A stretch of DNA of 38,614 bases from a virus. Its lineage: Duplodnaviria; Heunggongvirae; Uroviricota; Caudoviricetes. The stretch spans positions 1-38,614 of the IMG/VR virus record IMGVR_UViG_2554235189_000017, one strand, 5' to 3'. Positions within the stretch are counted from its first letter, which is position 1; each line of letters opens with the position of its first letter. Under the pieces are notes generated by a model. It searched no databases. It saw only the letters and a list, made by a program, of their open reading frames with translations, and was not told the origin of the DNA. This document shows positions 1 to 38,614 of the stretch, piece by piece. The position numbers and the translations under genes are program-made.

Positions 1-207
1 TTTACGCACACCGTATACCTGGTGATTTTCATCGTATACGCGCTGTATCTCTTTCTTCAGCCAGTCATCGTGCTGCGCACGGGCACTGCGTTTATCCGGA
101 TGATGTCGCTGTTGCTGACAATGGTAATACGTTGACGGGGCAATATGCAGTTCGCTGCATACCGGTCCGACCCCGTACTGCTCACGCAGCTTATCCAGCA
201 GTGGCAT
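1..207 (-). CDS. IS3-family transposase OrfB, N-terminal part (partial, continues past window start)
   Basis: ATG at 207-205 overlaps orfA stop; translation [23 protein letters not shown]... resembles IS3-family OrfB N-termini. Confidence 0.7.
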   Translation of the reverse strand, partial: MPLLDKLREQYGVGPVCSELHIAPSTYYHCQQQRHHPDKRSARAQHDDWLKKEIQRVYDENHQVYGVRK

Positions 208-533
208 TATTTTTTCCAGAGGCGGTCGAACTCCGCCTTCGCAAAATAAGCGGAAGCCTGGCGAAGGATATCGTTACTGCGGCGCAGTTCACGATTTTCA
301 CGTTCCAGCTCTTTCAGACGCTGACGTTCAGCGGTGGTGAGTCCACCATCACCACTCCCGGTATCCCGCTCATGCTGGCGAACCCAGACACGCAGAGTCT
401 CCGGCGTACAGCCAATCTTTGGGGCAATGGAACAAATTGCCGCCCACTGTGAGTCATATTCATCCTGACTTTCCAGAACCATACGAATCGCCCGCTGACG
501 GACTTCGGGGGAAAAACGAGTATTTTTAGTCAT
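207..533 (-). CDS. IS3-family transposase OrfA (HTH DNA-binding subunit)
   Basis: 108 aa [22 protein letters not shown]...[30 protein letters not shown], recalled as near-identical to IS629/IS3411 OrfA. Confidence 0.85.
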
Positions 534-558
534 CCTGTTTACCTCTTTCTCAGGGAGT

Positions 559-2988
559 TTAGTCTCCAGGATTTCCGGGGCGGTTCAGGTAGGTCTTACT
601 GCCGTTTCTCATGTCAGGAGCCTCATCATCTGGATCAGAAAAATTATACCCAAGAGTTAAATCATTAACCGTGGCATTATTCCCTGTTATTCCTTTGACT
701 TGATTAACACTTAACGGTATGTAATTAAACCCTGCAAAAAGCGGTGTTAACTTTTCTCTAAATAAAAGGCCTGGTGGGTATACTAACGAAGGTGTACCAT
801 CATATGTCACTGAGATAATATTAAGTCCCTTTTTAAGGGTTCCAATGCACGTTGTTTGTTTGCCTGTAAATGATGTTAGCCCATTGCTGGCAACTTTACC
901 TGATAGATAAGAAGAGTTCCTGATGTCATTGAGAATGACATTGAACTGGTTAACACGATCTGATGAAGTATAAGTTGGGTTATATGGCTCAAATAATGTT
1001 ACAGAGATATCGCTTGTATCACTCCATACAAAATACCGACAAATAACATTTTCATTTGAAGGCGTAATCCTTCCCCATCCACCAAGTGCATCAAGATAAT
1101 CACCTCCACTTAATATCGAAATTGATGGATAGTATCTGGTATTTGAAGGGTATCCAATACCAATAAATGAAAGTTGAGTAGTAGGGATTAGGTTCTTATT
1201 TTTTACAGCTGTATAAACGCGCTCTTTTAATACCTCTTTTGCAGCATAAGCACCGATGTAAGCATGCCCTATCGTTGATGGATGACTCTGATCAAAGACA
1301 GTTCCTCCATCACGCTTGGAAATATCAGAGATAGAATACGTACCAATGTCAGCATAAGCGTCAGTTGTGGCAACTGACAGATCCAGAAACTCAACTTTTT
1401 GAAAAAGACGCTCGATACGCTTCTTAATAGCTGCCTCCAGAAAAGCCTTTGGTGCATCATTATTGTTTACAGTAACAAAGCATATAGGACAACCATATCC
1501 CCATGATTTTCTAATCAACTTTTCAAATTCATGAAAATACGCTTCAAATCCTATTGTTGGAAGTATTCCATTGTCATTAAAACCAAGGCTTATAAAAAGA
1601 ACATCAGGAGCTTTTTTTCCATACGCAGCATTCTGGAAAAATCCATAGTCGAAGTTTTCATAACCCCAACCTGTGGCTAAAGCCTTTCCTGAAGAGGCAC
1701 AGTTGTATCCTTTAAAAATATTTGTTGTACTGTCAGATAGCATGTTCAGGCAATCAGTGAAGATCCTGAACCAGGAATACTTTCCGCCATTGAGGTTGTG
1801 GTTGTGGTTGGTTGAATTAAGATTACCATCGCTATCAGTTGGGTTCGGGGTCCATCCTGAACTATAGGCTCCATCCGTTATAGAATCACCAATGATACCT
1901 ACATGGCAATCTTCTATAGTTGATTGGTAACTCTGCTTATTTGCAAATTTAGCAATTGTTCCAAGAGCAGTAAAATCAGGGCCATTGTTAGATAGCCCAA
2001 CATCAAAAACATGCTCATTACCCCATTTGTCTCTTGTGAGAATTTTACCTTCTCCAAGAAATTTAGTCACATCATCTGACGGTAAAAAATTACACCTGAT
2101 GGTTACATCTTTTGGGATGTAAATCTGACCGGGGAAAGCATAAATTGCACTTCTGTTGTCAGTTGTCGTGTTAATAACGACATTTGGAACATAAAATATT
2201 GACGTTGCGTCAGTTCTATATTGTCCGTTAACAAGCTCAGATCTGAGAACCGCATCCCCAACACCTCTCCAAGCGCCAGGGCCGACACCACCAGCAGTGG
2301 TAGGAGTTGATCCAGGCGGAACTACTTTGGGCAGTGGCCCGTCCCATCTGTAGTATTCGCCGTTGCTTTCCCAGAGAAGAACATCGTTAAGATAGATGAG
2401 GGTATTACCCAACTCAAAAGATTTCTTCGTGTTATATCCATACAATCCATTTCCTAAGGTTTCAATAATGGTGCTAAGTAAGGAACTAAATTTTGCATAA
2501 AGATCATCAGTATATTTTTTTGTAGCAGCATCTTGAGGAAGAGATGGATCACGAAGGTTTCTAATGTAATTTGAAAGCGCGTCATAAAAAATTGCTACGT
2601 CAGTTGGCTTTCTTAAAGCCAACTTATCATTTCTTAATGATTGTTGAATGAGCATTGTAAGTTTATCAAACGCATCCTCATGCACCTCAGCGAAGAACTT
2701 ACCCTGGTTGCGCAGATCGGTATCCTGCGTAACCGGTAGCTCTCTTGATATAGAAATCTGATAACCGTTAGCCAACGCCTTCGACAGAATTACATTGCCG
2801 CCGTTATACCCTCCAGCACCAGTGACTATGTAATCAGTATCAAGAATCAGCTCTGTGATGTTCTCGTTCAGGTCAACAACCTGCACTACTAAATCAGATT
2901 TCTGGAAAATCCTGAAGGTATAAGGGAATGCCGTTGTAACACCGTTACCGGTGTATTCGTTGTGGTCAACTTCGGTTGATACCGTCAT
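559..2988 (-). CDS. Tailspike/tail fiber with conserved N-terminal virion-attachment domain and central SGNH/GDSL hydrolase domain (putative O-antigen deacetylase); 3' end replaced by IS sequence
   Basis: 809 aa; N-terminus [17 protein letters not shown] resembles a conserved tail-fibre N-domain; GDSITDG esterase motif mid-protein; the last ~8 codons and the stop lie inside the IS inverted repeat. Confidence 0.75.
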
Positions 2989-3091
2989 GTTAAATCTCCA
3001 GATAGTCGCAGCACCCGTTGCGCCGCATATCCGGTTATTTTATTACCTAAAAACCATATATGGATAAGCAACCCATAAATACGAACAGATA

Positions 3092-3106
3092 TTACCTTTC
3101 AGGTAA
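3092..3106. promoter_or_regulatory. Operator-like palindrome TTACCtttcaGGTAA in the divergent tailspike / tum-like promoter region
   Basis: Perfect TTACC-N5-GGTAA, one of about 12 copies of this motif in the window. Confidence 0.5.
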
Positions 3107-3143
3107 TTTGCAAAACGTGCTGGATAGCAAACAAATTATTTGA

Positions 3144-3163
3144 TACTGTATATTTATACAGTT
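3144..3163 (+). promoter_or_regulatory. LexA (SOS) box TACTGTATATTTATACAGTT upstream of the Tum-like gene
   Basis: Perfect CTGT-N8-ACAG with AT-rich spacer, about 20 nt upstream of the ATG at 3183. Confidence 0.75.
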
Positions 3164-3182
3164 ATTGCATGGAGAAGATAAG

Positions 3183-3440
3183 ATGCAGCGGTATCACTAT
3201 CCACTGGAAGACGGATTTACCGAAAGGATTCACACGCCGGGAGGCGTCAGGTCACTGGTGGAGGGATCGCACTTGATGAAATTACTCCGGGATCTCGATA
3301 AGGATGGATTTAATGTCGATGGCCCACTTGCCGAACTGACTGCACTGATTAACTACGTCACCAGCTCACAGATGACTATGCAGGATCTGCAAACACATCT
3401 CGACTATTGTGCCGAACAATTACGAAAACAAACCAGATAA
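3183..3440 (+). CDS. Small SOS-regulated antirepressor-like protein (Tum-like), 85 aa
   Basis: GGAG RBS 8 nt upstream; LexA box immediately upstream; sequence LMKLLRDLDKDGFNVDGPLAELT...DLQTH aligns with the C-terminus of the downstream Bro-N antirepressor (LMNLLNQLQEDGHDVSGAAAELT...DIQTH). Confidence 0.6.
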   Translation: MQRYHYPLEDGFTERIHTPGGVRSLVEGSHLMKLLRDLDKDGFNVDGPLAELTALINYVTSSQMTMQDLQTHLDYCAEQLRKQTR

Positions 3441-3454
3441 GATTTGAAATCACC

Positions 3455-3508
3455 AAGAGGAGTGCTTATATTTACCTTTGCGGTAAATTTACATCGCACT
3501 CCTCTTGT
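3455..3508. repeat. 12-bp inverted repeat (CAAGAGGAGTGC / GCACTCCTCTTG) enclosing an operator-like TTACCtttgcGGTAA (3472-3486)
   Basis: Read directly; a second hairpin CGGGCACTGG/CCAGTGCCGG follows at about 3520-3544. Confidence 0.6.
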
Positions 3509-3577
3509 GCCATAGTAATCGGGCACTGGCAAAATCCAGTGCCGGGATTGGCGTCCCGAGTTACTAAGTGGCGCATA

Positions 3578-3600
3578 CCACGCCAGACGTGGTTTTTTTA
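3578..3600 (+). terminator. Putative rho-independent terminator (CCACG-loop-CGTGG + T7)
   Basis: Short GC stem followed by TTTTTTT. Confidence 0.45.
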
Positions 3601-3755
3601 TGCGTTAAGCACAGCCATATCCGAATTATGGTGGGCTGGGCAGGGGTCCGAAAGGACGCCGGTACCACTTAGGCCGGTACGCCAACCTTGTCCAGTTCAC
3701 CACCAGTAATTGGCGTTGCGGTGGTGATTAAAATCACTAAGTGGAGATAACCACC

Positions 3756-4466
3756 ATGGCTAATGCTCAAACTGCCATCTTCAAATTTGAATCTGTTAAC
3801 CCTATCCGTTCCATCATTATCGATGGCCAACCATGGTTTGTAGCCCAAGACGTTTGTAGTGCGCTGCGTATCCAAAACGTCACCCAATCACTTGAAAAAC
3901 TGGATGATGATGAAAGGTCTATGTTCAACATAGGGCATGAACATCGTGCAATTTTTGATAGCCGAGTAAAAGAGATCAACATCATCTCCGAGTCAGGCCT
4001 CTACACACTGATCCTCCGCTGCCGCGATGCGGTGACACCAGGCACTATCCCCTACCGCTTTCGTAAATGGGTTACAGGTGAGGTTCTTCCTCAGATCCGC
4101 CGCACCGGAAGTTACATTAAAAACTCGCTCCCGCAGGAAGAACGCATAAAGATGGTTGCCGACCAGGTAGCCAACGCCACAGCATCAGCAGTGATGCAGG
4201 CAATGAAGATAGAGAACAAAACCTACAGTGCCCCACTGAAGCCCGGCTACCGTAGCCTGATTCATTCGCCGTCTGGTGTTCTCGGCCTGACTGAGAACTC
4301 ACTGCTGATGAATCTGCTGAACCAGTTACAGGAAGACGGGCATGATGTATCGGGCGCAGCGGCGGAGCTGACCACCATGTTCTGCTACATCGTCGGTGTG
4401 AGCAAATGCCTGCGTGATATCCAGACGCACGCGGAGTACATCAACGACAAGGCAGGGTTCTTCTGA
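3756..4466 (+). CDS. Phage antirepressor, Bro-N/AntA-like N-terminal domain with antirepressor C-terminal domain
   Basis: GGAGA RBS then ATG 3756; N-terminus AIFKFESVNPIRSIIIDGQPWFVAQDVCSAL is Bro-N-like. Confidence 0.75.
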   Translation: MANAQTAIFKFESVNPIRSIIIDGQPWFVAQDVCSALRIQNVTQSLEKLDDDERSMFNIGHEHRAIFDSRVKEINIISESGLYTLILRCRDAVTPGTIPYRFRKWVTGEVLPQIRRTGSYIKNSLPQEERIKMVADQVANATASAVMQAMKIENKTYSAPLKPGYRSLIHSPSGVLGLTENSLLMNLLNQLQEDGHDVSGAAAELTTMFCYIVGVSKCLRDIQTHAEYINDKAGFF

Positions 4467-4532
4467 CATGACGGCGGCACAGGGATGTGCCTTTAAATAA
4501 TTCTGTACAGATTGCAGGTGAATAGCGTACTA

Positions 4533-4547
4533 TTACCCCAAAGGTAA
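4533..4547. promoter_or_regulatory. Operator-like palindrome TTACCccaaaGGTAA upstream of the AT-rich two-gene operon
   Basis: Perfect TTACC-N5-GGTAA. Confidence 0.45.
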
Positions 4548-4664
4548 GAAAGTTGATTTGTAACATTTTAGTTTGTAGTTACCGTGATGGTTTTGCTGCA
4601 GAAAGTTAACTAGTCAAAATCACACCGTATGTAAGTCACGTCTGTTCCCGTATGGGAGGATGAT

Positions 4665-4883
4665 ATGTTTAAATTTGATATGCAACTCAACCAAAACTAT
4701 GCCTCTTTTTACCATCCAGAAACTGGTAAAGCTGTTTTCGTTGACTCTTTCGATAATGAAGAATTTGATATCAGAATTGGGACCCTACGCCAAAGTAAGC
4801 ATGTTGCTACTGTACGTGCATCCAATGATGATGAATTAAATCAAAAAATAAGTGAGGCGACCTCCCGTTATCTATGTCTATAA
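4665..4883 (+). CDS. Hypothetical protein (72 aa), first gene of an AT-rich two-gene operon
   Basis: GGGAGG RBS then ATG; ends 10 nt inside the next ORF (translational coupling); AT-rich versus flanks. Confidence 0.55.
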   Translation: MFKFDMQLNQNYASFYHPETGKAVFVDSFDNEEFDIRIGTLRQSKHVATVRASNDDELNQKISEATSRYLCL

Positions 4884-5251
4884 CAGAACAACAACTCATT
4901 GATCTTGAGGATGAGATTAACGAGATCTTGCAAGAAGATGCGGCAAGAATTCACTTTTCATTTCATGCAGCATATGAACGCCTGAACGACGAGAGGAACA
5001 AACCGCCAATTACTCTTGCTGAGCTTGAAGATGTGTTTAAATCGTTTATATCTGCACATCTGCAGACTGTTTTGGATTTTGCCGAAGGTACAACTTTCAC
5101 CATAAAGTGCAACAAAAGCGCCCTTCATTTTCCTTGCGCCATTGTACACGAAAGAGAGTTTGGGAAAACGTGGATTATCCAAAACGTCATTACAGCCATG
5201 AGGAAAGTGGGATTCAAGTCTAAAGATTCTATTATCCTCGAAGTTAATTAA
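4874..5251 (+). CDS. Hypothetical protein (125 aa), second gene of the AT-rich two-gene operon
   Basis: Overlaps upstream ORF; acidic helical N-terminus; followed directly by a terminator. Confidence 0.55.
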   Translation: MSITEQQLIDLEDEINEILQEDAARIHFSFHAAYERLNDERNKPPITLAELEDVFKSFISAHLQTVLDFAEGTTFTIKCNKSALHFPCAIVHEREFGKTWIIQNVITAMRKVGFKSKDSIILEVN

Positions 5252-19116: not shown

Positions 19117-19812
19117 TTATTTGCCATAGAGCACTTCGGCCGCACTACGCAGGCCTTCATTACCACCGGTGACCATGCCATCTTCAGACATCGCCTTTCC
19201 GATTTTCACGAACGCTTTGACCAGATCAGGGTGATTACCCAGCCCGGTGGTGTTCAGATATTCTTTGAGTTCAGGTGTCCCGAACTGGTCAAGCGCACGC
19301 TGTGCGGCGCTAAGGTTAGAAATCAACTTGTCGCCACCGATTTCTTTGTCAGCTTTTACATCCGCAGCCCACTGCTCGGTTGTTTTCTGCCAGGCTTCTG
19401 CCTGGCGCTGCTGAACACCTGCCAGAATCTTCGGATAAGCATCAACCAGCTTTTGCGCTTGATCGTTGGTCAGGTTTAGTTCTCGCGCCACCGGCTCGAA
19501 TTCCTTCAACGCTTCTGTATCCAGCTCTACGCCTTCGGCAGCCTGAAACTCGTACTTCTCCGGCGCACCCTCCGGTTTATCGCCGTCCTTTTTTTCACCC
19601 TGCTTATCGCTTTCAGGCTTTTTGTCATCAGCAGGTTTATCGCCATCAGCAACAGGTTGTGTCTTATCACCTTCCTGTTGTGATGGATCACCAACTGGAG
19701 CAGGGTTATCACCTGCAGGCGCTGACGGTTCTGACGCAGCCGGAGCTGCTCCACCATCGACTGGTTGCTCATTGCAAAGACGGCGATACAGCAAACGCTC
19801 AAATAAATTCAT
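19117..19812 (-). CDS. Scaffolding protein
   Basis: Highly acidic, Pro/Lys/Asp-rich N-terminus plus helical C-terminus between portal and capsid; start taken at MNLFERL. Confidence 0.5.
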   Translation of the reverse strand: MNLFERLLYRRLCNEQPVDGGAAPAASEPSAPAGDNPAPVGDPSQQEGDKTQPVADGDKPADDKKPESDKQGEKKDGDKPEGAPEKYEFQAAEGVELDTEALKEFEPVARELNLTNDQAQKLVDAYPKILAGVQQRQAEAWQKTTEQWAADVKADKEIGGDKLISNLSAAQRALDQFGTPELKEYLNTTGLGNHPDLVKAFVKIGKAMSEDGMVTGGNEGLRSAAEVLYGK

Positions 19813-19814
19813 GA

Positions 19815-20111
19815 TCACTCCTGTTCACTGGCCTCTTTGGCCATCTTCAAATACTGTTCAGGGCAATGCGCCATAACGCGCTGAAACAGTTCCAGCGCCA
19901 GATTGCGTTGCCCCTCATTAAATGCCATTGCCATAGCGTCCATCGGTGAGATAGCGGAAAACACACGGCCTTTCTCCAGCACCGACCAGACAACGCGACG
20001 CCCCTGTTCACTGCTCATGACAAAGCGAATGTCATCAATTTCACGCTGCGCCATGTCACGTTGCTTACGGGCGTTTTCTTCTTTCAGTTGATCGTCTTCG
20101 TAATCTGTCAT
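19815..20111 (-). CDS. Small head-assembly-associated protein (98 aa)
   Basis: Overlaps the portal stop (ATGA); charged helical protein. Confidence 0.45.
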   Translation of the reverse strand: MTDYEDDQLKEENARKQRDMAQREIDDIRFVMSSEQGRRVVWSVLEKGRVFSAISPMDAMAMAFNEGQRNLALELFQRVMAHCPEQYLKMAKEASEQE

Positions 20112-21787
20112 TGTGATTGCCCACCCTGACCACTAACTGCATTCGCCATAGCTGACAAAACACTCGGATCCGAAGTTTTAGCTTCGCTTAGCGTCTTGGC
20201 ACCCTGTGCCGCCGCCATCCCCATCGCCATCATTTGTTGCTGCTGTTGCTGCTGTGCCCGTTGCTGGCGAGCCTGCTCAACCTGTTCCTGCGGAACAATG
20301 ACGGTTGGAGACACTCCGGACATATCAGCGAATGCATCGATCGCCTGATCAACGTTGAGTTTGTCGAGAGCTTCTGGTTTCGCTTGCGCAAGTTGACCAA
20401 TGAAGTTAACCGTGGACGCCAGACTGGACAGGCCGATAGACTTCTGCGCCTGAGCCATGACGGAAATGTATTCGACCTTCAGTGGCATGCCTTCCATCGC
20501 GTCAGGCGGTGGCGGCAGCATGTTTTTGCGCACCATCATCGAGAAAGAGCGGTCAATGAGAGGATTAAGACATTCGTCGTTCAGACGCTCCAGAACCGGC
20601 CCCAACATCAGAAGTTTTTCTTCTTTCATTTCGATCACCGCTTCAACAGGCATCGAGCGGGTATTGATGTTCTGCAACATCATGAACAGATCGACAAAGT
20701 AGGCGCTGTTAATGATTTGACGAGTGTCCTGAATGTCTGCCACCAAATCTGCTGTACTGGGGTTAACCAGATAAGCAGGCCTGAAGCCATCCTGACCAGT
20801 AATCTGATCGATATACGTGATGTCGCCAGGAAGAAGGGAGGCGCGCTGATTCTTGAGGGAAGTCGGAGCAACCATCGGCGGATTGGTGGCTTTATCAATC
20901 AACTGCGACTTGCGCTTCTGGAGAAGCTGCAATGCCTTAACAGGTCCAAGCGCCAGCATACCCGGGCATGATGATCCATAAACATCTTCGCCATTAACTT
21001 CCCAGCGCGGAGCCATAATTGGAAACTCATCGAATCCGGACTCACGCAACAACTTGTCGTTATCGCCACCAACCTCGTAATAAACCGATTTGAATGGCTT
21101 GTTCTTGCTATCCAGCTTCGATGTATCGCGGTCAATGTTCGGGTAAACCGAATGCATCACTTCGATCCACTTCTCGTAGGTGCCGCTTTCCCACATGCTT
21201 TTTACGGATTCGCTGACGTTATTTAGCCCGAACTCCTGAACAAGCTGACGAACAGTCATAGAGAACTTGCGAAAACAGGTGTCAACACTGCCACGAGGTG
21301 AGTTAGCCAGGTAGTAACTGCCTATCGGGAATGGCATTGTGCGAATGATGTCCTCGTCATCCTCCAGCACTGCCATTGCACCAGTGCTGTATGTGCCGAG
21401 GCTTCCGTATAACTGCGGCAGCGACTGATAGAGATTCGACTTATTGAACATATCGTTCATGCGGTTCTGCACCGCCTCAAGCCACAACTTAACAGGGCCA
21501 TAATCCATCATTTCAGGATCTGGCGTAGCCAGGCGAAACCACGGACGCGCGGGGCTTGTGATGCCTGACATCATGCCGCTGGCGAGAGTGCGCGCCGCCA
21601 TAGTCCCGGTCGAATCAATAATGCGTGTATTGCGTCGATCGTTACGGTTGACCTCAGAAGTCAGAAAGCGGGAACCACGCGGGTTGATGTAATCACTCAA
21701 CTCGCGCCAGTGCGGCTCGAACGACTGACGCTCGCTTTCAAGTTGTGCGAACTGTTTGTTCAATCGCTCTTTAGTTGTTTCCGCCAT
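20108..21787 (-). CDS. Portal protein (head-to-tail connector, podovirus type)
   Basis: 559 aa immediately downstream of the terminase region. Confidence 0.75.
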   Translation of the reverse strand: MAETTKERLNKQFAQLESERQSFEPHWRELSDYINPRGSRFLTSEVNRNDRRNTRIIDSTGTMAARTLASGMMSGITSPARPWFRLATPDPEMMDYGPVKLWLEAVQNRMNDMFNKSNLYQSLPQLYGSLGTYSTGAMAVLEDDEDIIRTMPFPIGSYYLANSPRGSVDTCFRKFSMTVRQLVQEFGLNNVSESVKSMWESGTYEKWIEVMHSVYPNIDRDTSKLDSKNKPFKSVYYEVGGDNDKLLRESGFDEFPIMAPRWEVNGEDVYGSSCPGMLALGPVKALQLLQKRKSQLIDKATNPPMVAPTSLKNQRASLLPGDITYIDQITGQDGFRPAYLVNPSTADLVADIQDTRQIINSAYFVDLFMMLQNINTRSMPVEAVIEMKEEKLLMLGPVLERLNDECLNPLIDRSFSMMVRKNMLPPPPDAMEGMPLKVEYISVMAQAQKSIGLSSLASTVNFIGQLAQAKPEALDKLNVDQAIDAFADMSGVSPTVIVPQEQVEQARQQRAQQQQQQQMMAMGMAAAQGAKTLSEAKTSDPSVLSAMANAVSGQGGQSQ

Positions 21788-22435: not shown

Positions 22436-22512
22436 GTGGCATTAGCTCAGTTGGACAGAGCAACCGCCTTCTAAGCGGTTGGTCGCAGGTTCGAATCCTG
22501 CATGCCACGCCA
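22436..22512 (+). tRNA. tRNA-Arg (anticodon UCU), phage-encoded
   Basis: Hand-folded cloverleaf: acceptor GTGGCAT/ATGCCAC, D-arm GCTC...GAGC, anticodon loop CTTCTAA, T-arm GCAGG-TTCGAAT-CCTGC, encoded CCA. Confidence 0.85.
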
Positions 22513-32110: not shown

Positions 32111-32173
32111 TCACCCATAAGGTAACAAAAATCAAGGATAGTTACCTATGAGGTGCATTTACCTGTTGGGTAA
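32111..32173. promoter_or_regulatory. OR-like region: three operator sites (tCACC-N5-GGTAA 32111-32125; TTACC-N5-GGTGC 32142-32156; TTACC-N5-GGTAA 32159-32173)
   Basis: Three spaced copies of the palindrome between divergent Cro-like and CI-like genes. Confidence 0.65.
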
Positions 32174-32228: not shown

Positions 32229-32813
32229 ATGAAAAGTATCCAGGACGTCCGCAGGCAAAATCTCAACGACTTGATCGACCGTGAATTCAATGGTGTTCAG
32301 ACGCGGATGGCAGAAAAACTTGGAACTCAGGCAAATCTGGTAAACCGCTGGGCTCTTGGCAAGAAGGTTATCGGCGACCAGGTTGCGCGAAAAATTGAAG
32401 CTGCCGCCAATAAACCCCGTAACTGGCTTGATATCGATCGCTCGCTTTCTCAGGAAGGTTTTCAGCCTGTCGGCCCAAGCGACATTGGTCAGCTGGCGGC
32501 TCACAACCTGGAACGCTGGATGAGCGAAAGCCGCGACCTTTCAACACAGGGAAAACTTCACCGCGCATCCGGCGTCGCCCAGGTGACAATCAGCCGCCTG
32601 TTAAACAATGAGGTCAGCGTTTCCATTTCCACCCTGGAGAATGTTGCATCCGCATTCGGGCGTCACGGATATGAACTACTGATTCACCCGCACGACCCTG
32701 CGACTATCAACTATGACCGCTCGCGCTACGCATTGTTACCCGAAACCGAGAAAGCAAAGATCGAAAGTTACATTGAATTTGTCATCAACCAGAACGAAAA
32801 AAACAAACAATAA
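32229..32813 (+). CDS. CI-like prophage repressor with two HTH regions and no recognisable autocleavage domain
   Basis: 194 aa; HTH-like segments near residues 20-60 and 110-150; no peptidase S24 motifs seen. Confidence 0.6.
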   Translation: MKSIQDVRRQNLNDLIDREFNGVQTRMAEKLGTQANLVNRWALGKKVIGDQVARKIEAAANKPRNWLDIDRSLSQEGFQPVGPSDIGQLAAHNLERWMSESRDLSTQGKLHRASGVAQVTISRLLNNEVSVSISTLENVASAFGRHGYELLIHPHDPATINYDRSRYALLPETEKAKIESYIEFVINQNEKNKQ

Positions 32814-32869: not shown

Positions 32870-32946
32870 ATTACCTAATGGGTAATTTTTTTAACTCATA
32901 TCTATTGACATCAAACCAGATACGCATAATTATTACCTCAACGGTA
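32870..32946. promoter_or_regulatory. OL/PL-like region: operator sites TTACCtaatgGGTAA (32870-32884) and TTACCtcaacGGTAA (32932-32946) flanking a TTGACA -35 hexamer (32904-32909)
   Basis: Operators bracket a promoter reading into the early-left operon. Confidence 0.6.
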
Positions 32947-32965
32947 ACAGACCGAGGTAACAAGT

Positions 32966-33121: not shown

Positions 33122-33421
33122 ATGAACGTTAATCAGCAGAAAAATCTTCAAAAAATCATGCTGGCATTCGACAAGGACTACCGCCTGTCAGAACAGCTAT
33201 ATGACCGACAAGTTGAACTGATCGATAGCATCCGACTTCATCAACTGTCCTCAACTTTCGACGTTGTAACAGGCAAAGGCGTTCGTCAGGAAGTGCTGGA
33301 GGCTGCTAAAGACAGCCCTGAGTTCGAAGAACTGATGGATGCCTACCGGCGCGAGGCAATGGCAATTATAGCGCGCTGGGATCTGGCGGATCAGCTTGAT
33401 GGTCAGAGGGACGCGGCATGA
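33122..33421 (+). CDS. Hypothetical protein (99 aa)
   Basis: GGGAGGG RBS then ATG. Confidence 0.5.
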   Translation: MNVNQQKNLQKIMLAFDKDYRLSEQLYDRQVELIDSIRLHQLSSTFDVVTGKGVRQEVLEAAKDSPEFEELMDAYRREAMAIIARWDLADQLDGQRDAA

Positions 33422-34317
33422 TGCGGAACGCTGGAATCATGGATAGAACAAAATACATCGGAGGAAGCGATGTTGCAGGGATTCTTGGAATTAGCCCATG
33501 GCGCACCCCGCTTGAGGTTTATCTGGATAAGGTCCAGCCACGTGTCAAACCAGTAGACCCAAGCAAGCAGAAAGTTTTCACGCGTGGCCAGCGTATGGAA
33601 CCATACGTAATAGACCTGCTTTCTGAGGAAACAGGGATGGAAATCGTTCATCGCGGAAACCGCTATATCCACCGTGATTACGATTTTATTGCAGCTGAGA
33701 TCGATGCAGAAGCAGCGTCAGGCGAGAACATTGAGATCAAAACAGTTAGTCCGTTCAAAGCCAAAGAATGGGGAGAAATCCAGACAGATGCAATTCCTGT
33801 GCATTACACGGCCCAGGCCATGCACGGGTTGATGGTTACAAACAAACAGGTATGCGTTTTCGGTGTGCTTATCGGTGGCGACGACTTCCGAATCTATCGG
33901 GTTGAGCGTGATGAAGAAACTATCCAGGCGATCTTAGAAAAAGAAATCGCTTTCTGGGACCGAGTGAAAAATCTTAACCCGCCGGAAGCTACCAGCGTAA
34001 GCGATGTATCGCTGATGTTTGAGAAAGATGCCGGGACAAGTATCGAGGCTGACGGAAAGGCACTCGCACTATTCAACGATCTACGAGACATGAAATCACG
34101 CAGAAAATCACTGGAAGAAGAAATAGCTATATCAGAAGAGAAGCTGAAGATGTACATGCAAGAGCACTCAGTCCTGACCCTGGACGGAAAGCCGCTCTGC
34201 ACATGGAAATCTCAGATCAGCAACAGATTCGACCAGAAGCTATTCCAGTCAGTACACCCTGAGTTATTCGAAAAATTCAAAACAACAACGACACAACGCG
34301 TCTTCAGAATGAAGTAA
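33418..34317 (+). CDS. YqaJ-like viral exonuclease (lambda Exo functional analogue)
   Basis: 299 aa, YqaJ-family N-terminus, immediately upstream of RecT. Confidence 0.7.
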   Translation: MMRNAGIMDRTKYIGGSDVAGILGISPWRTPLEVYLDKVQPRVKPVDPSKQKVFTRGQRMEPYVIDLLSEETGMEIVHRGNRYIHRDYDFIAAEIDAEAASGENIEIKTVSPFKAKEWGEIQTDAIPVHYTAQAMHGLMVTNKQVCVFGVLIGGDDFRIYRVERDEETIQAILEKEIAFWDRVKNLNPPEATSVSDVSLMFEKDAGTSIEADGKALALFNDLRDMKSRRKSLEEEIAISEEKLKMYMQEHSVLTLDGKPLCTWKSQISNRFDQKLFQSVHPELFEKFKTTTTQRVFRMK

Positions 34318-34326
34318 GGAGAAAAA

Positions 34327-35349
34327 ATGTCTATCAATGCACTTAAGGCAGCGGCTACCGGTAACCAAGTTGCACATCATAATGAGAAACCAACAACTCT
34401 GGCCGGACTTCTGGCAGACCCAAAAATTAAAGCTCAGATGGCTTTGGCACTTCCAAAGCACATGACAGCAGACCGTCTGGCGCGCATAGCAACCACAGAG
34501 ATCAGAAAGGTTCCAAAACTTGCATCATGCGACCAAGCCAGCTTCCTGGGGGCAATTATGCAATGTGCCCAATTGGGTCTTGAACCAGGCGGAGCTCTTG
34601 GACACGCTTACCTGATACCGTTCGACAAACGCCAGAAAGTAAATGGAAGATGGGAAACCGTATCTACAGAAGCACAGCTGATTATCGGCTATCGCGGAAT
34701 GATTGACCTTGCCCGCCGCTCTGGGCAGATCCTGAGTATCTCGGCTCGTACCGTACATACAAACGACAAATTCAGCTACTCATACGGCCTGGAAGAAACG
34801 CTCGAGCATTTACCTTGCGAAACAGGTGACCGCGGAGAATTAACGCACGTTTACGCCGTTGCACGACTGAAAGATGGCGGAGTCCAATTTGAAGTTATGA
34901 GCCGGGCAGACGTTGAGAAAGTTCGTGCACTGAGCAAAGCCGGTAGCAGTGGCCCATGGGTTGATCACTTCGATGAGATGGCTAAAAAAACAGTAATTCG
35001 CCGACTGTTCAAATATCTTCCTGTTTCTATTGAAATGCAGAAGGCTGTTGTTATGGATGAGCGCGCTGAAGCTGGACTTAGCCAAGATAACGCAGCTGTT
35101 ATCACTGGTGAATATTCCGTAGTTGACGATGAGCGTCAACACCTGTCGCCAATTTCAGATTCAGAACGAGAAGAAGCTCGAGAATATATCATCGCGATAC
35201 TTAATAGCCTGGATCCATCTGCTGAAGATGCAAAAACGATGTTCAAGCGCGCTGAAAATGAAATTAACACCATGGCTGAAAAGCTCGGTGATGAATATCA
35301 CCAAAAATTCATGATGACGCTTAACGATATGCGTCCAGAATTCGAGTAA
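34327..35349 (+). CDS. recT: RecT-family single-strand annealing recombinase
   Basis: 340 aa with RecT-family core; paired with the YqaJ-like exonuclease. Confidence 0.75.
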   Translation: MSINALKAAATGNQVAHHNEKPTTLAGLLADPKIKAQMALALPKHMTADRLARIATTEIRKVPKLASCDQASFLGAIMQCAQLGLEPGGALGHAYLIPFDKRQKVNGRWETVSTEAQLIIGYRGMIDLARRSGQILSISARTVHTNDKFSYSYGLEETLEHLPCETGDRGELTHVYAVARLKDGGVQFEVMSRADVEKVRALSKAGSSGPWVDHFDEMAKKTVIRRLFKYLPVSIEMQKAVVMDERAEAGLSQDNAAVITGEYSVVDDERQHLSPISDSEREEAREYIIAILNSLDPSAEDAKTMFKRAENEINTMAEKLGDEYHQKFMMTLNDMRPEFE

Positions 35350-36056: not shown

Positions 36057-36699
36057 GAAATACACACTAATCTATGCAGATCCACCCTGGGTATACCGGG
36101 ACAAAGCCGCAGATGGTAATCGCGGTGCCGGTTTTAAATATCCGGTTATGAGTGTGCTGGATATCTGCCGCCTTCCTGTGTGGGATTTGGCCGATGAAAA
36201 CTGTCTGTTGGCCATGTGGTGGGTGCCAACACAACCACTCGAAGCACTAAAAGTTGTTGAAGCCTGGGGATTCCGTCTGATGACGATGAAGGGCTTCACG
36301 TGGATAAAATGTGGTAGTCGACAACCAGATAAACTGGTTATGGGTATGGGACACATGACTCGCGCCAATAGTGAAGATTGCCTGTTTGCGGTAAAGGGAA
36401 AACTACCTACGCGCATTAATGCAGGGATCGTTCAGTCATTTACCGCACCGCGGCTTGAGCATTCAAGAAAGCCAAATATCGTTCGTGAAAAACTTGTGCA
36501 ATTATTAGGCGATGTTTCTCGCATTGAACTGTTCGCCCGCCAGACGTCTCATGGCTTCGATGTTTGGGGTAATCAGTGCGAAGACCCGGCAGTGCAACTA
36601 CACCCTGGATACGCGTTGGATATTGGCGGATTAACAAATGCATTCAGCAATGCTCCGCTGTCACCAACAGACAACCAGGGGCGGGAGCGTGCAGCATGA
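36049..36699 (+). CDS. MT-A70-family DNA N6-adenine methyltransferase
   Basis: YADPPW catalytic motif near N-terminus; ATG at 36049 preferred over the track start. Confidence 0.75.
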
Positions 36700-37355
36700 A
36701 CCTATATCAACGCATCAATGGCGCTGACTGGTGCAATATCTTCGTCGTCGGCGATCTGCATGGGTGCTACACGCTGCTGATGAACGAACTCGACAAAGTT
36801 TCATTCGACCCGGCGCGCGATTTGCTTATTTCCGTTGGTGACCTTGTTGACCGCGGCGCTGAAAACGTCGAATGCCTGGATTTGATTACTATGCCGTGGT
36901 TCCGAGCTGTTCGTGGCAACCATGAGCAGATGATGCTGGATGCACTGGTCAACGGCGGAAGTTTCGGACATTGGATGTCAAACGGCGGTGGATGGTGGCA
37001 CCAACTTGATTCTGAGCAGGATGTGCAACTCAAATACCTTCTGCCAAAGGTTACCAACCTCCCGATGATTATCGAACTGGTTACCGGCAATAAGAAGGTC
37101 GTCATCTGCCACGCAGACTACCCGCACAACGAATACGCATTCGATAAGCCAGTACCGGAAGAAATGGTGATATGGAATCGTGAGCGGGTTAGCGACGCGC
37201 AGGACGGTATTGTCTCGGAGATAACCGGTGCCGATTTGTTCATCTTCGGTCATACGCCAGCACATCACCCACTGGTGTATGCAAACCAAATGTACATCGA
37301 TACCGGCGCAGTGTTCTGCGGAAATCTGACGCTTACCAAAGTCCAGGAAGGATAG
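36696..37355 (+). CDS. Ser/Thr protein phosphatase (calcineurin-like, lambda PPase family)
   Basis: GDLHG, GDLVDRG and GNHE metallophosphatase motifs; ATGA overlap with the methyltransferase gene. Confidence 0.8.
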
Positions 37356-37357
37356 AA

Positions 37358-38614
37358 TTATTTATTACTGTCTTCCATCCACTTCTCAAACTTCGACGGG
37401 GAGAACGGAATCAGATCCGTATGCTCCCCGTTAATCCAGGAATCAATCATATCGGCCCACTGCTGCAACATGTAGGCGCGCTGTCTGGCGTATTCCGCTT
37501 TGTTATATACGGCGCGCACACCTTTCTGCTCATGTGCCAGAGCCTTTTCAATCCAGTCTGAAGGATAACCAGCCTCATGCAACAACGTACTGGCTGTACG
37601 GCGCATATCGTGTACGGTGAAGCCCTGAATATGCTCACCATCTTCATTTATTATTTTCACCGTTCTGTCGATCAGAGAGTTCAGCGCGGCATTAGATAAT
37701 GGCTTCCGGAAATTGTAACGACCAGGAACCAGATATCCACTTCCACCAGCGCACATCTGCAACCCGATCAATATATCCTGAGCCTGTTTAGGCAGGTAAA
37801 TAATGTGCGCCCGGCTTCCCTTCATGCGGTCTGAAGGAATTGTCCATGTCCATTTTTTAAAATCTATTTCATCCCACGTTGCATTGGTGAATTCGCCTTT
37901 ACGAACCATAGTGATAAGCACCAGCTTTAAAGCCATTTTCATAGTGCCCATAGCACCAATGGCATCCAACGTGCGGAAGAACAGGCCAATTTCTTCTGGT
38001 GTCAGTGTTCGCTCTCGTGGTTTAAATATGGCGATAGACGAAGGTTTAATGTCAGCTGCAGGATTAAACAAACCATGACCACGGTCATTGGCGTGACGGT
38101 ATACGCTGCTGATGATCTCCCTGGCCTGCACTGCTGTTGCCCGGCCACCGCGTTCGACAATCCGGTCACACAAATCACGAACCATCGATGTGGTAATTTC
38201 AGCCATCATTTTGTTGCCAAGAACCGGAAGTATGTCACGGTCGATCACCGCCTGTTTCATTGCCCGGGTACTGTCAGCCAGAATGACGTGCTTCAAATAG
38301 CTGTCGGTATGTACCGCGAATGTCTCAGCCCCACGGATCTTTTTGATACCGTCACGTTTAGCCGCAGCAGGCGACTGGCCTGCCTTTAACAGCTTTTTTG
38401 CAGCAATGAGTTCTTCGCGTGCTTCCGCCAGGCTGATACCGTCACGACCATACTGACCAATGACCAGCGTTTCCCGTCGTCCGTTAATGCGGTAGTCGTA
38501 CCGGAACGAGACAGAGCCGGAGGTAAGAACAGCGACATACAGCCCGTCACGATCGGAGACCTTGTACAGTTTGTCCTGCGGCTTGAGGTTTTTTAATTTT
38601 GTATCGGTAAGCAC
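37358..38614 (-). CDS. int: Tyrosine integrase (P4-like); start at or just beyond window end
   Basis: 418 aa; N-terminus LTDTKLKNLKP typical of P4-type integrases; HDMRRTAST box in C-terminal catalytic region. Confidence 0.8.
   Translation of the reverse strand: MLTDTKLKNLKPQDKLYKVSDRDGLYVAVLTSGSVSFRYDYRINGRRETLVIGQYGRDGISLAEAREELIAAKKLLKAGQSPAAAKRDGIKKIRGAETFAVHTDSYLKHVILADSTRAMKQAVIDRDILPVLGNKMMAEITTSMVRDLCDRIVERGGRATAVQAREIISSVYRHANDRGHGLFNPAADIKPSSIAIFKPRERTLTPEEIGLFFRTLDAIGAMGTMKMALKLVLITMVRKGEFTNATWDEIDFKKWTWTIPSDRMKGSRAHIIYLPKQAQDILIGLQMCAGGSGYLVPGRYNFRKPLSNAALNSLIDRTVKIINEDGEHIQGFTVHDMRRTASTLLHEAGYPSDWIEKALAHEQKGVRAVYNKAEYARQRAYMLQQWADMIDSWINGEHTDLIPFSPSKFEKWMEDSNK

Follow-up and report, generated by a model that had tools for sequence, protein, structure and literature searches.

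The window examined here, that is, the whole stretch of 38,614 nucleotides of the virus record IMGVR_UViG_2554235189_000017 (IMG/VR), is, judging from its nucleotide matches, a phiV10/epsilon15-like prophage (genus Uetakevirus) of Escherichia coli and thus a member of the same genus as the Salmonella phage SPC32H. The explanation that very probably accounts for the window combines two components: (i) a lytic switch of the SPC32H type, in which the host LexA protein would control ant1, the gene of a small antirepressor acting on the phage repressor Rep; and (ii) a separately wired module in which ant2, the gene of a larger antirepressor, would be gated by a C4-type antisense RNA. A preliminary description of the window had correctly delimited this region as positions 3144-4466, from a LexA box through the stop codon of a Bro-N gene. 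The LexA-Ant-Rep switch is already characterised in an ortholog of the same genus, that of SPC32H (Kim & Ryu 2013, J Virol 87:11775; Kim et al. 2016, PNAS), and is not, in consequence, a new prediction; what is mildly new is only that the two antirepressors stand side by side and are paralogs.

The predicted LexA-controlled antirepressor and its repressor

The switch proper consists of the following three features:

3144-3163: LexA box TACTGTATATTTATACAGTT, a 20-mer that agrees with the consensus TACTGTATATATATACAGTA at 18 of 20 positions; its core, CTGTATATTTATACAG, is at 3146-3161
3183-3440, plus strand: ant1, small antirepressor of 85 amino acids, with its ATG at 3183 and the sequence GGAG at 3172-3175
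32229-32813, plus strand: rep, predicted non-cleavable repressor of 194 amino acids, ortholog of SPC32H Rep

The ant1 gene and the tail-fibre gene are divergent, and the intergenic region of 195 bp between them holds the LexA box, whose end lies 20 nt from the ATG of ant1, while 156 nt separate the box from the ATG of the tail-fibre gene. The pattern CTGT-N8-ACAG occurs three times in the window (0.57 occurrences are expected), and the match at 3146-3161 is the only one with an AT-rich spacer. With a weight matrix trained on E. coli LexA boxes, whose scores are approximate only, the box reaches 26-27 bits, in the upper range of the training sites, versus 12 bits for the runner-up in the window and 17.7 bits for the best site across 20 shuffles. 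The near-consensus box that the preliminary description had placed upstream of the 85-amino-acid gene is, therefore, borne out both by inspection and by the matrix.

Regarding conservation, CTGT-N8-ACAG is kept in 9 of 11 relatives, from Escherichia, Salmonella and Enterobacter, and its 8-nt spacer varies; the window, phiV10, TL-2011b, HEMP4, ZX5, SPC32H, epsilon15, Tyrion, and BUCT554 have it. In two Klebsiella phages ATGT replaces the CTGT half-site, and in SPC32N the ACAG half-site of SPC32H reads AAAG. The regions upstream of ant in the window and SPC32H align base for base. Work by Kim and Ryu from 2013 reportedly found that Rep is uncleaved during the SOS response, that LexA represses ant, and that this single-base change in SPC32N leads to constitutive Ant.

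Ant1 is, by homology, the ortholog of SPC32H Ant. Over its whole length (residues 2-84 versus 3-85) it matches chain E of PDB entry 5D50 ('Anti-repressor protein'; E 2.6e-47), and it is 89% identical to the product of the annotated SPC32H ant gene. Its public annotation is nonetheless "hypothetical protein"; its family, phrog_450, bears the PHROGs label "unknown function", and no Pfam family was found for it. The arrangement of ant divergent from a tailspike or tail-fibre gene recurs in SPC32H, epsilon15, phiV10 and all the other relatives examined, and in SPC32H the LexA box stands at the same place. Either TTGATA(3140)-17-TATTGC or the conserved TGGATA(3121)-17-TACTGT may serve as the promoter of ant1.

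The repressor is homologous to SPC32H Rep over its full length. Residues 1-190 match chain A of 5D50 ('Repressor'; E 4e-42), and residues 89-190 match 5D4Z, the C-terminal region of Rep responsible for tetramerisation and Ant binding (E 4e-20). Pfam assigns residues 106-147 to HTH_3 and, weakly, residues 21-61 to a YdaS-type helix-turn-helix (HTH), whereas no match to Peptidase_S24 was obtained at E <= 0.1, either in Rep or in ten other early-region open reading frames (ORFs) searched. This agrees with the preliminary description, which had reported a repressor with two HTH regions and no cleavage domain. As in SPC32H, an N-terminal DNA-binding domain is followed by the tetramerisation and Ant-binding region, with no S24 domain, and the fold type of the solved homolog differs from that of the autocleavable repressors of the Lambda CI/LexA type. 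5D50 and 5D4Z correspond to the Rep-Ant complex of SPC32H. Published descriptions have Rep sitting on DNA as a tetramer, which is broken up when an Ant tetramer engages two Rep dimers; both the tetramerisation of Rep and its contact with Ant go through its C-terminal domain.

From these parts the following sequence of events can be proposed. In the lysogen, Rep would hold the early promoters off by means of operators of the form TTACC-N5-GGTAA, and host LexA would occupy the box directly upstream of ant1. Lacking an autocleavage domain, Rep would be unable to respond to RecA* on its own. Upon DNA damage, LexA would be cleaved and Ant1 synthesised; Ant1 would then bind the C-terminal region of Rep, the Rep tetramer would leave the DNA, and the early promoters would open. 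The LexA-Ant1-Rep steps have been demonstrated in the SPC32H ortholog and are here inferred from homology and from the conservation of every part.

Another reading would be that the LexA box is there by chance or controls the tail-fibre gene on the other side, the repressor being inactivated in some other way (by cleavage or through a different inducer). The position of the box within a divergent intergenic region and the fact that the promoter scan did not call hexamers for ant1 would suit this reading. Nevertheless, it is highly improbable: the box is far closer to the ATG of ant1 than to that of the tail-fibre gene, it is the sole high-scoring LexA site in 38.6 kb and is conserved across genera, Rep is devoid of S24, and the mechanism of its ortholog has been solved.

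The preliminary description had also compared this logic with that of phage 186 Tum and the Gifsy prophages. The analogy is sound, since in 186 (Tum) and in the Gifsy prophages (GfoA/GftA) LexA likewise represses a small antirepressor that is encoded outside the immunity region and targets a non-cleavable repressor. It does not extend to homology: Tum has a DinI-like half, whereas Ant1 has none, and homology between Ant1 and Tum was rejected (BLASTP 16.9 bits, E 0.046, in a single comparison).

With at most one mismatch allowed, 13 copies of the palindrome TTACC-N5-GGTAA are present in the window, versus 0.54 expected:

3092-3106: Rep-operator-like palindrome TTACCTTTCAGGTAA, in the intergenic region of ant1 and the tail-fibre gene
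3472-3486: Rep-operator-like palindrome TTACCTTTGCGGTAA, overlapping the -10 of the first promoter downstream of ant1 and abutting the -35 of the second
4533-4547: Rep-operator-like palindrome, past the end of ant2 and ahead of two small cargo ORFs
32111-32125 and 32159-32173: pair of Rep-operator-like palindromes between a cro-like gene and rep
32871-32885 and 32933-32947: pair of Rep-operator-like palindromes downstream of rep, ahead of the recombination operon
25166 and 25184, 29766 and 29828: two other pairs of sites
22099: a single site
896: a one-mismatch site inside the tail-fibre gene

The palindrome at 3092 is kept upstream of ant in all the relatives, SPC32H included, and the epsilon15 record labels its counterpart as a site of repressor binding. 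As for the one at 3472-3486, its half-sites are kept in six relatives and its spacer varies. TTACC-N5-GGTAA is probably the Rep operator. Such operators would probably mark about seven regulated sites genome-wide, far above the two classic immunity promoters.

The RNA module between ant1 and ant2

The gap of 315 nt that separates ant1 from ant2 is not a simple spacer, and its contents had been overlooked in the preliminary description. The following features, all on the plus strand, can be distinguished from the end of ant1 onwards:

3444-3472: sigma-70-like promoter 1, TTGAAA-17-TATATT (promoter scan; kept in six relatives)
3488-3516: sigma-70-like promoter 2, TTTACA-17-CATAGT with an upstream TG (promoter scan; kept in six relatives)
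3523-3599: isrK-like RNA (Rfam RF01394, 67.2 bits; gathering score 50)
3548-3553: C4 target a1, UUGGCG, in the isrK-like RNA
3564-3571: C4 target b1, CUAAGUGG, in the isrK-like RNA
3577-3599: intrinsic terminator of the isrK-like RNA (6-bp stem, T7)
3624-3707: C4-type antisense RNA (Rfam RF01695, 66 bits; gathering score 45)
3665-3672: C4 loop b', CCACUUAG, a hairpin loop in the minimum-free-energy fold
3680-3685: C4 a', CGCCAA, single-stranded
3710-3755: ant2 leader, read from the sequence
3710-3715: C4 target a2, UUGGCG, in the ant2 leader
3737-3744: C4 target b2, CUAAGUGG, overlapping the Shine-Dalgarno sequence GGAG (3743-3746) of ant2
3756-4466: ant2, antirepressor of 236 amino acids with a Bro-N head and an Ant-like C-terminal domain

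The start predicted from promoter 2, which has a TG-extended -10, falls at about 3523, the first base of the isrK match. The c4-a1b1 family (RF03163) matches at 3510-3562 with 44.3 bits, just under its gathering score of 46.7. The b' and a' segments of C4 are complementary to two sets of targets: a1/b1 in the isrK-like RNA and a2/b2 in the ant2 leader.

Furthermore, the a'/b' segments of C4 covary with both copies of the targets, and four specificity types can be differentiated among the relatives:

Window and HEMP4: b' CCACUUAG; b1/b2 CUAAGUGG
phiV10, TL-2011b and ZX5: b' CCUUUUAG; b1/b2 CUAAAAGG
Tyrion: b' CCUUUGUAG; b1/b2 CUACAAAGG; a' GACCAA, which pairs with UUGGUC
OXA245phi3.2: b' CCGUUUAG; b1/b2 CUAAACGG; b2 reads CUAAGCGG, with pairing kept via G-U

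When C4 segments and leaders of 40 nt were compared with RNAduplex, the cognate pair was the most stable one in each row, although cognate and non-cognate pairs are only weakly separated (1-12 kcal/mol), the covariation being the stronger evidence. The covariation supports the view that the loops of C4 would pair with the Shine-Dalgarno region of ant2 and thereby keep it untranslated.

This organisation is known from other phages. The immI region of P1/P7 (c4-icd-ant), the immA region of N15 and the isrK-orf45(STnc1160)-anrP locus of Gifsy-1 contain, in the same order, decoy targets, C4, targets that cover the ribosome-binding site (RBS), and a Bro-N antirepressor. In P1/P7, c4 blocks ant by pairing around the RBS. 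In Gifsy-1, the isrK-STnc1160-anrP transcript is made by read-through of the isrK terminator and is untranslated unless the short IsrK is supplied (PMC4825925). N15 has isrK and C4 upstream of a Bro-N Ant, as in the window, and its gp30 is 52% identical to the head of Ant2. Three differences should be noted: (i) P1 and Gifsy-1 possess a coupling ORF (icd or orf45), whereas in the window ant2 is itself the direct target of C4, with b2 overlapping its Shine-Dalgarno sequence; (ii) the C-terminal domain of the antirepressor of the window, in contrast to those of N15, P1 and Gifsy, has the fold of SPC32H Ant; and (iii) the module of the window, unlike those of P1, N15 and Gifsy-1, is located directly downstream of a LexA-controlled ant gene. 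No coupling ORF of the icd or orf45 type with at least 40 amino acids was found between C4 and ant2, where the distance from the end of C4 to the ATG is 48 nt. A Gifsy-type orf45 was considered and rejected: the candidate is just a 14-codon ORF overlapping C4.

The module of the window can, then, be described as two promoter-like sites in tandem, accompanied by a Rep-operator-like palindrome and followed by an isrK-like RNA with decoy C4 targets and a putatively leaky terminator, C4, and ant2. This bears on the claim, made in the preliminary description, that LexA derepression would release both antirepressors. For ant1 the claim stands, in agreement with the mechanism of the SPC32H ortholog; ant2, with its own promoter-like sites, the isrK-like RNA and its terminator, and C4, is not simply LexA-controlled. 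The strict form of the claim, with a single LexA-controlled operon that comprises ant1 and ant2 and yields the two antirepressors as a direct result of LexA cleavage, is unlikely. No terminator lies between the stop codon of ant1 and isrK, and the isrK terminator is leaky in Gifsy-1, so that SOS transcripts could reach ant2. But two conserved promoter-like sites, an operator-like palindrome and the terminator at 3577-3599 intervene between the two genes; the Shine-Dalgarno sequence of ant2 appears masked by an RNA that covaries with its targets; the read-through messenger of Gifsy-1 is made but not translated; and SPC32H, epsilon15, and BUCT554 operate the switch with ant1 alone.

The isrK-C4 module was found in six relatives and in N15. 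Since SPC32H, epsilon15, and BUCT554 have ant1 without the RNA-ant2 cassette (in SPC32H, ant is alone, and the window adds to it the isrK-C4-ant2 module and downstream cargo ORFs), the cassette can be regarded as an accessory that was inserted into a hot spot for cargo genes. In TL-2011b, an insertion of about 1.1 kb (3280-4368 of the locus), situated before the isrK element, separates the LexA-controlled ant1 from the RNA module; its sole annotation, 'similar to hypothetical protein', refers to the opposite strand.

The probable second antirepressor

The alignment of the 85-amino-acid protein with the C-terminus of the Bro-N antirepressor, as put forward in the preliminary description, is confirmed: Ant1 and residues 157-228 (of 236) of Ant2 are 43% identical (E 9e-16). 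Ant2 comprises a Bro-N head (amino acids 17-112, nt 3804-4091; Pfam 3.4e-19) and an Ant-like C-terminal domain (amino acids 155-231, nt 4218-4448) that matches chain E of 5D50 (E 1.2e-13) and phrog_450 (4e-36). Among the related phages, this domain is kept in every Ant2 ortholog except that of phiV10. Ant2 can be inferred to be a further antirepressor, under RNA control, whose targets would be repressors of the Rep family.

The Ant fold is scarce. An exhaustive profile search retrieved only 61 clusters among 1.84 billion representatives, in which the fold is either stand-alone (about 85 amino acids) or the C-terminal domain of larger proteins; a word-index search with Ant1 found close stand-alone Ants only, the fused forms coming from the exhaustive profile search only. 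The heads of those larger proteins that were checked are AntA, Bro-N, Phage_pRha, or ORF6N. Because the fold is found on four kinds of heads, it behaves as a portable repressor-binding module.

A characterised ortholog of Ant2 is the anti-repressor ORF4 of E. coli phage vB_EcoP_ZX5 (ZX5); the two proteins are 81% identical as a whole and show no differences beyond about residue 75. ZX5 has the same small ant, the LexA box and the RNA module upstream, but its C4 specificity is of the phiV10 type (CCUUUUAG / CUAAAAGG) and the Bro-N N-terminus differs. When ORF4 was over-expressed, lysogen counts fell from 1e9 to 1e6, and mitomycin C induces ZX5; the authors of that study annotated the small Ant as hypothetical, and the LexA box and the RNAs were left undescribed (PMC9782041).

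As regards the release of Ant2, it would take place after the removal of Rep, or on infection, and Ant2 might then reinforce or extend antirepression. In addition, SOS transcripts derived from ant1 would carry the a1/b1 decoys and may titrate C4, helping to free Ant2.

A different role is a real possibility, short of being the probable one: Ant2 might be unrelated to the SOS induction of its own prophage and act instead against immunity, as a weapon like Ant of P1/P22 that is produced when the phage infects and is directed against the Rep-family repressors of resident relatives, with C4 as a second immunity specificity. The existence of at least four mutually covarying C4/target types among otherwise near-identical phages recalls the heteroimmunity of P1 and P7. 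Compared with phiV10, where ant2 is frameshifted, mosaicism affects both the Bro-N head and the C4 type, and three relatives are devoid of the module; these points favour such a role. The Rep-operator-like site at the promoters of the module suggests, in turn, a coupling to the state of the phage's own Rep. In any case, this role is compatible with the SPC32H-type switch plus C4-gated module and is not exclusive of it.

It is also conceivable, if doubtful, that E. coli prophages of the phiV10 type run a two-tier antirepression in which one Rep-binding fold is used twice: in a LexA-gated Ant of 85 amino acids and in a C4-gated fusion of Bro-N and Ant. The tiers could be coupled in three ways: (i) SOS transcripts ending in the isrK decoy could sponge C4 and so license the translation of Ant2; (ii) the removal of Rep could derepress the promoters of the RNA module; and (iii) the Ant paralogs might co-assemble into mixed tetramers.

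Several points weigh against the SPC32H-type switch with its C4-gated companion. Rep and its SPC32H ortholog share only about 50% identity, versus the 89% between Ant1 and SPC32H Ant, and the fit between Ant1 and Rep is assumed. The operator consensus is based on enrichment and on the annotation of one record, not on a footprint. Rep bound at 3472-3486 may either repress or activate the isrK promoter. Under the criteria of the promoter scan, no sigma-70 match overlaps the LexA box, the hexamers of ant1 remaining uncalled. The link between the SOS response and Ant2 through the titration of C4 is a conjecture. Finally, ant2 of phiV10 (19551-20230) is frameshifted inside the Ant-like domain and yields a protein of 194 amino acids ending in ...LLMNRTTGMMYQARRRS, the remainder being annotated as ORF p22; judging from this sequence, the type phage probably lacks a functional Ant2, which is therefore dispensable at least in phiV10.

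Relatives, neighbouring genes and significance

The region under study and the immunity region have 92-99% nucleotide identity with phiV10, TL-2011b, HEMP4, ZX5 and other Uetakevirus podophages of E. coli, and a weaker similarity to epsilon15-like phages of Enterobacter, Klebsiella, and Salmonella. Local blastn comparisons with phiV10 and the other loci that were fetched revealed long colinear stretches common to the window and phiV10. Given that an integrase gene is located at the far end of the window, and a tail-fibre gene followed by an IS3-family element at the near end, the window can be regarded as a prophage. Positions 3000-4600 have a match in 535 of 5426 complete E. coli genomes (about 10%). 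Uetakevirus prophages are inducible by DNA damage, as illustrated by ZX5 with mitomycin C and by ue_4E6 with a DNA-damaging microcin.

At the near end, the IS3-family element (window 1-540) directly adjoins the tail-fibre gene at its 3' end. Rfam recognises in the element an ALIL frameshift pseudoknot (136-252, minus strand, 120 bits), and its orfA (207-533, minus strand) looks similar to those of IS629/IS1203. In phiV10 a lysis cassette comes after the tail fibre; the window lacks this cassette, and the prophage may be interrupted at that point. The tail-fibre gene itself (559-2988, minus strand) matches phiV10 only at the N-terminus of its product and encodes a GDSxxDG motif (IIGDSITDG); BUCT711 has a counterpart with the annotation GDSL-type esterase, and a receptor-binding protein of the deacetylase type is accordingly suggested for the window.

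Downstream of ant2 and the operator-like site, two ORFs of 72 and 125 amino acids (4660-5251) belong to phrog_14630 and phrog_14518, both of unknown function. In TL-2011b this position is occupied by a gene for a YafO toxin, and in BUCT711 by one for a DUF2335 protein; it can hence be considered a hot spot for cargo (moron) genes.

Elsewhere in the window, the recombination module (33418-35349) has separate ORFs of 299 and 340 amino acids, by eye a YqaJ-like exonuclease and RecT, whereas phiV10 has a fused RecE/RecT gene; this stretch is without a nucleotide match to phiV10. A gene for tRNA-Arg(TCT) is found at 22436-22512 (plus strand), as in phiV10. Near the integrase end, an ORF at 36576-37355 (plus strand) with a calcineurin-like metallophosphoesterase domain (Pfam Metallophos, 2e-15) adjoins an MT-A70-type methyltransferase, and 36702-37374, which includes most of that ORF, has no match in phiV10.

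With regard to the biology of these phages, recognition of an SPC32H-type switch predicts which prophages of E. coli, including those of O157 and other Shiga toxin-producing strains, are induced via LexA and not by repressor cleavage. If the two-tier circuit were true, it would tie the SOS regulon to RNA-based immunity and would constitute a feed-forward commitment step in prophage induction. The Ant fold as a portable "warhead", and a C4-gated paralog beside a LexA-gated one, represent modest and testable extensions of known biology.

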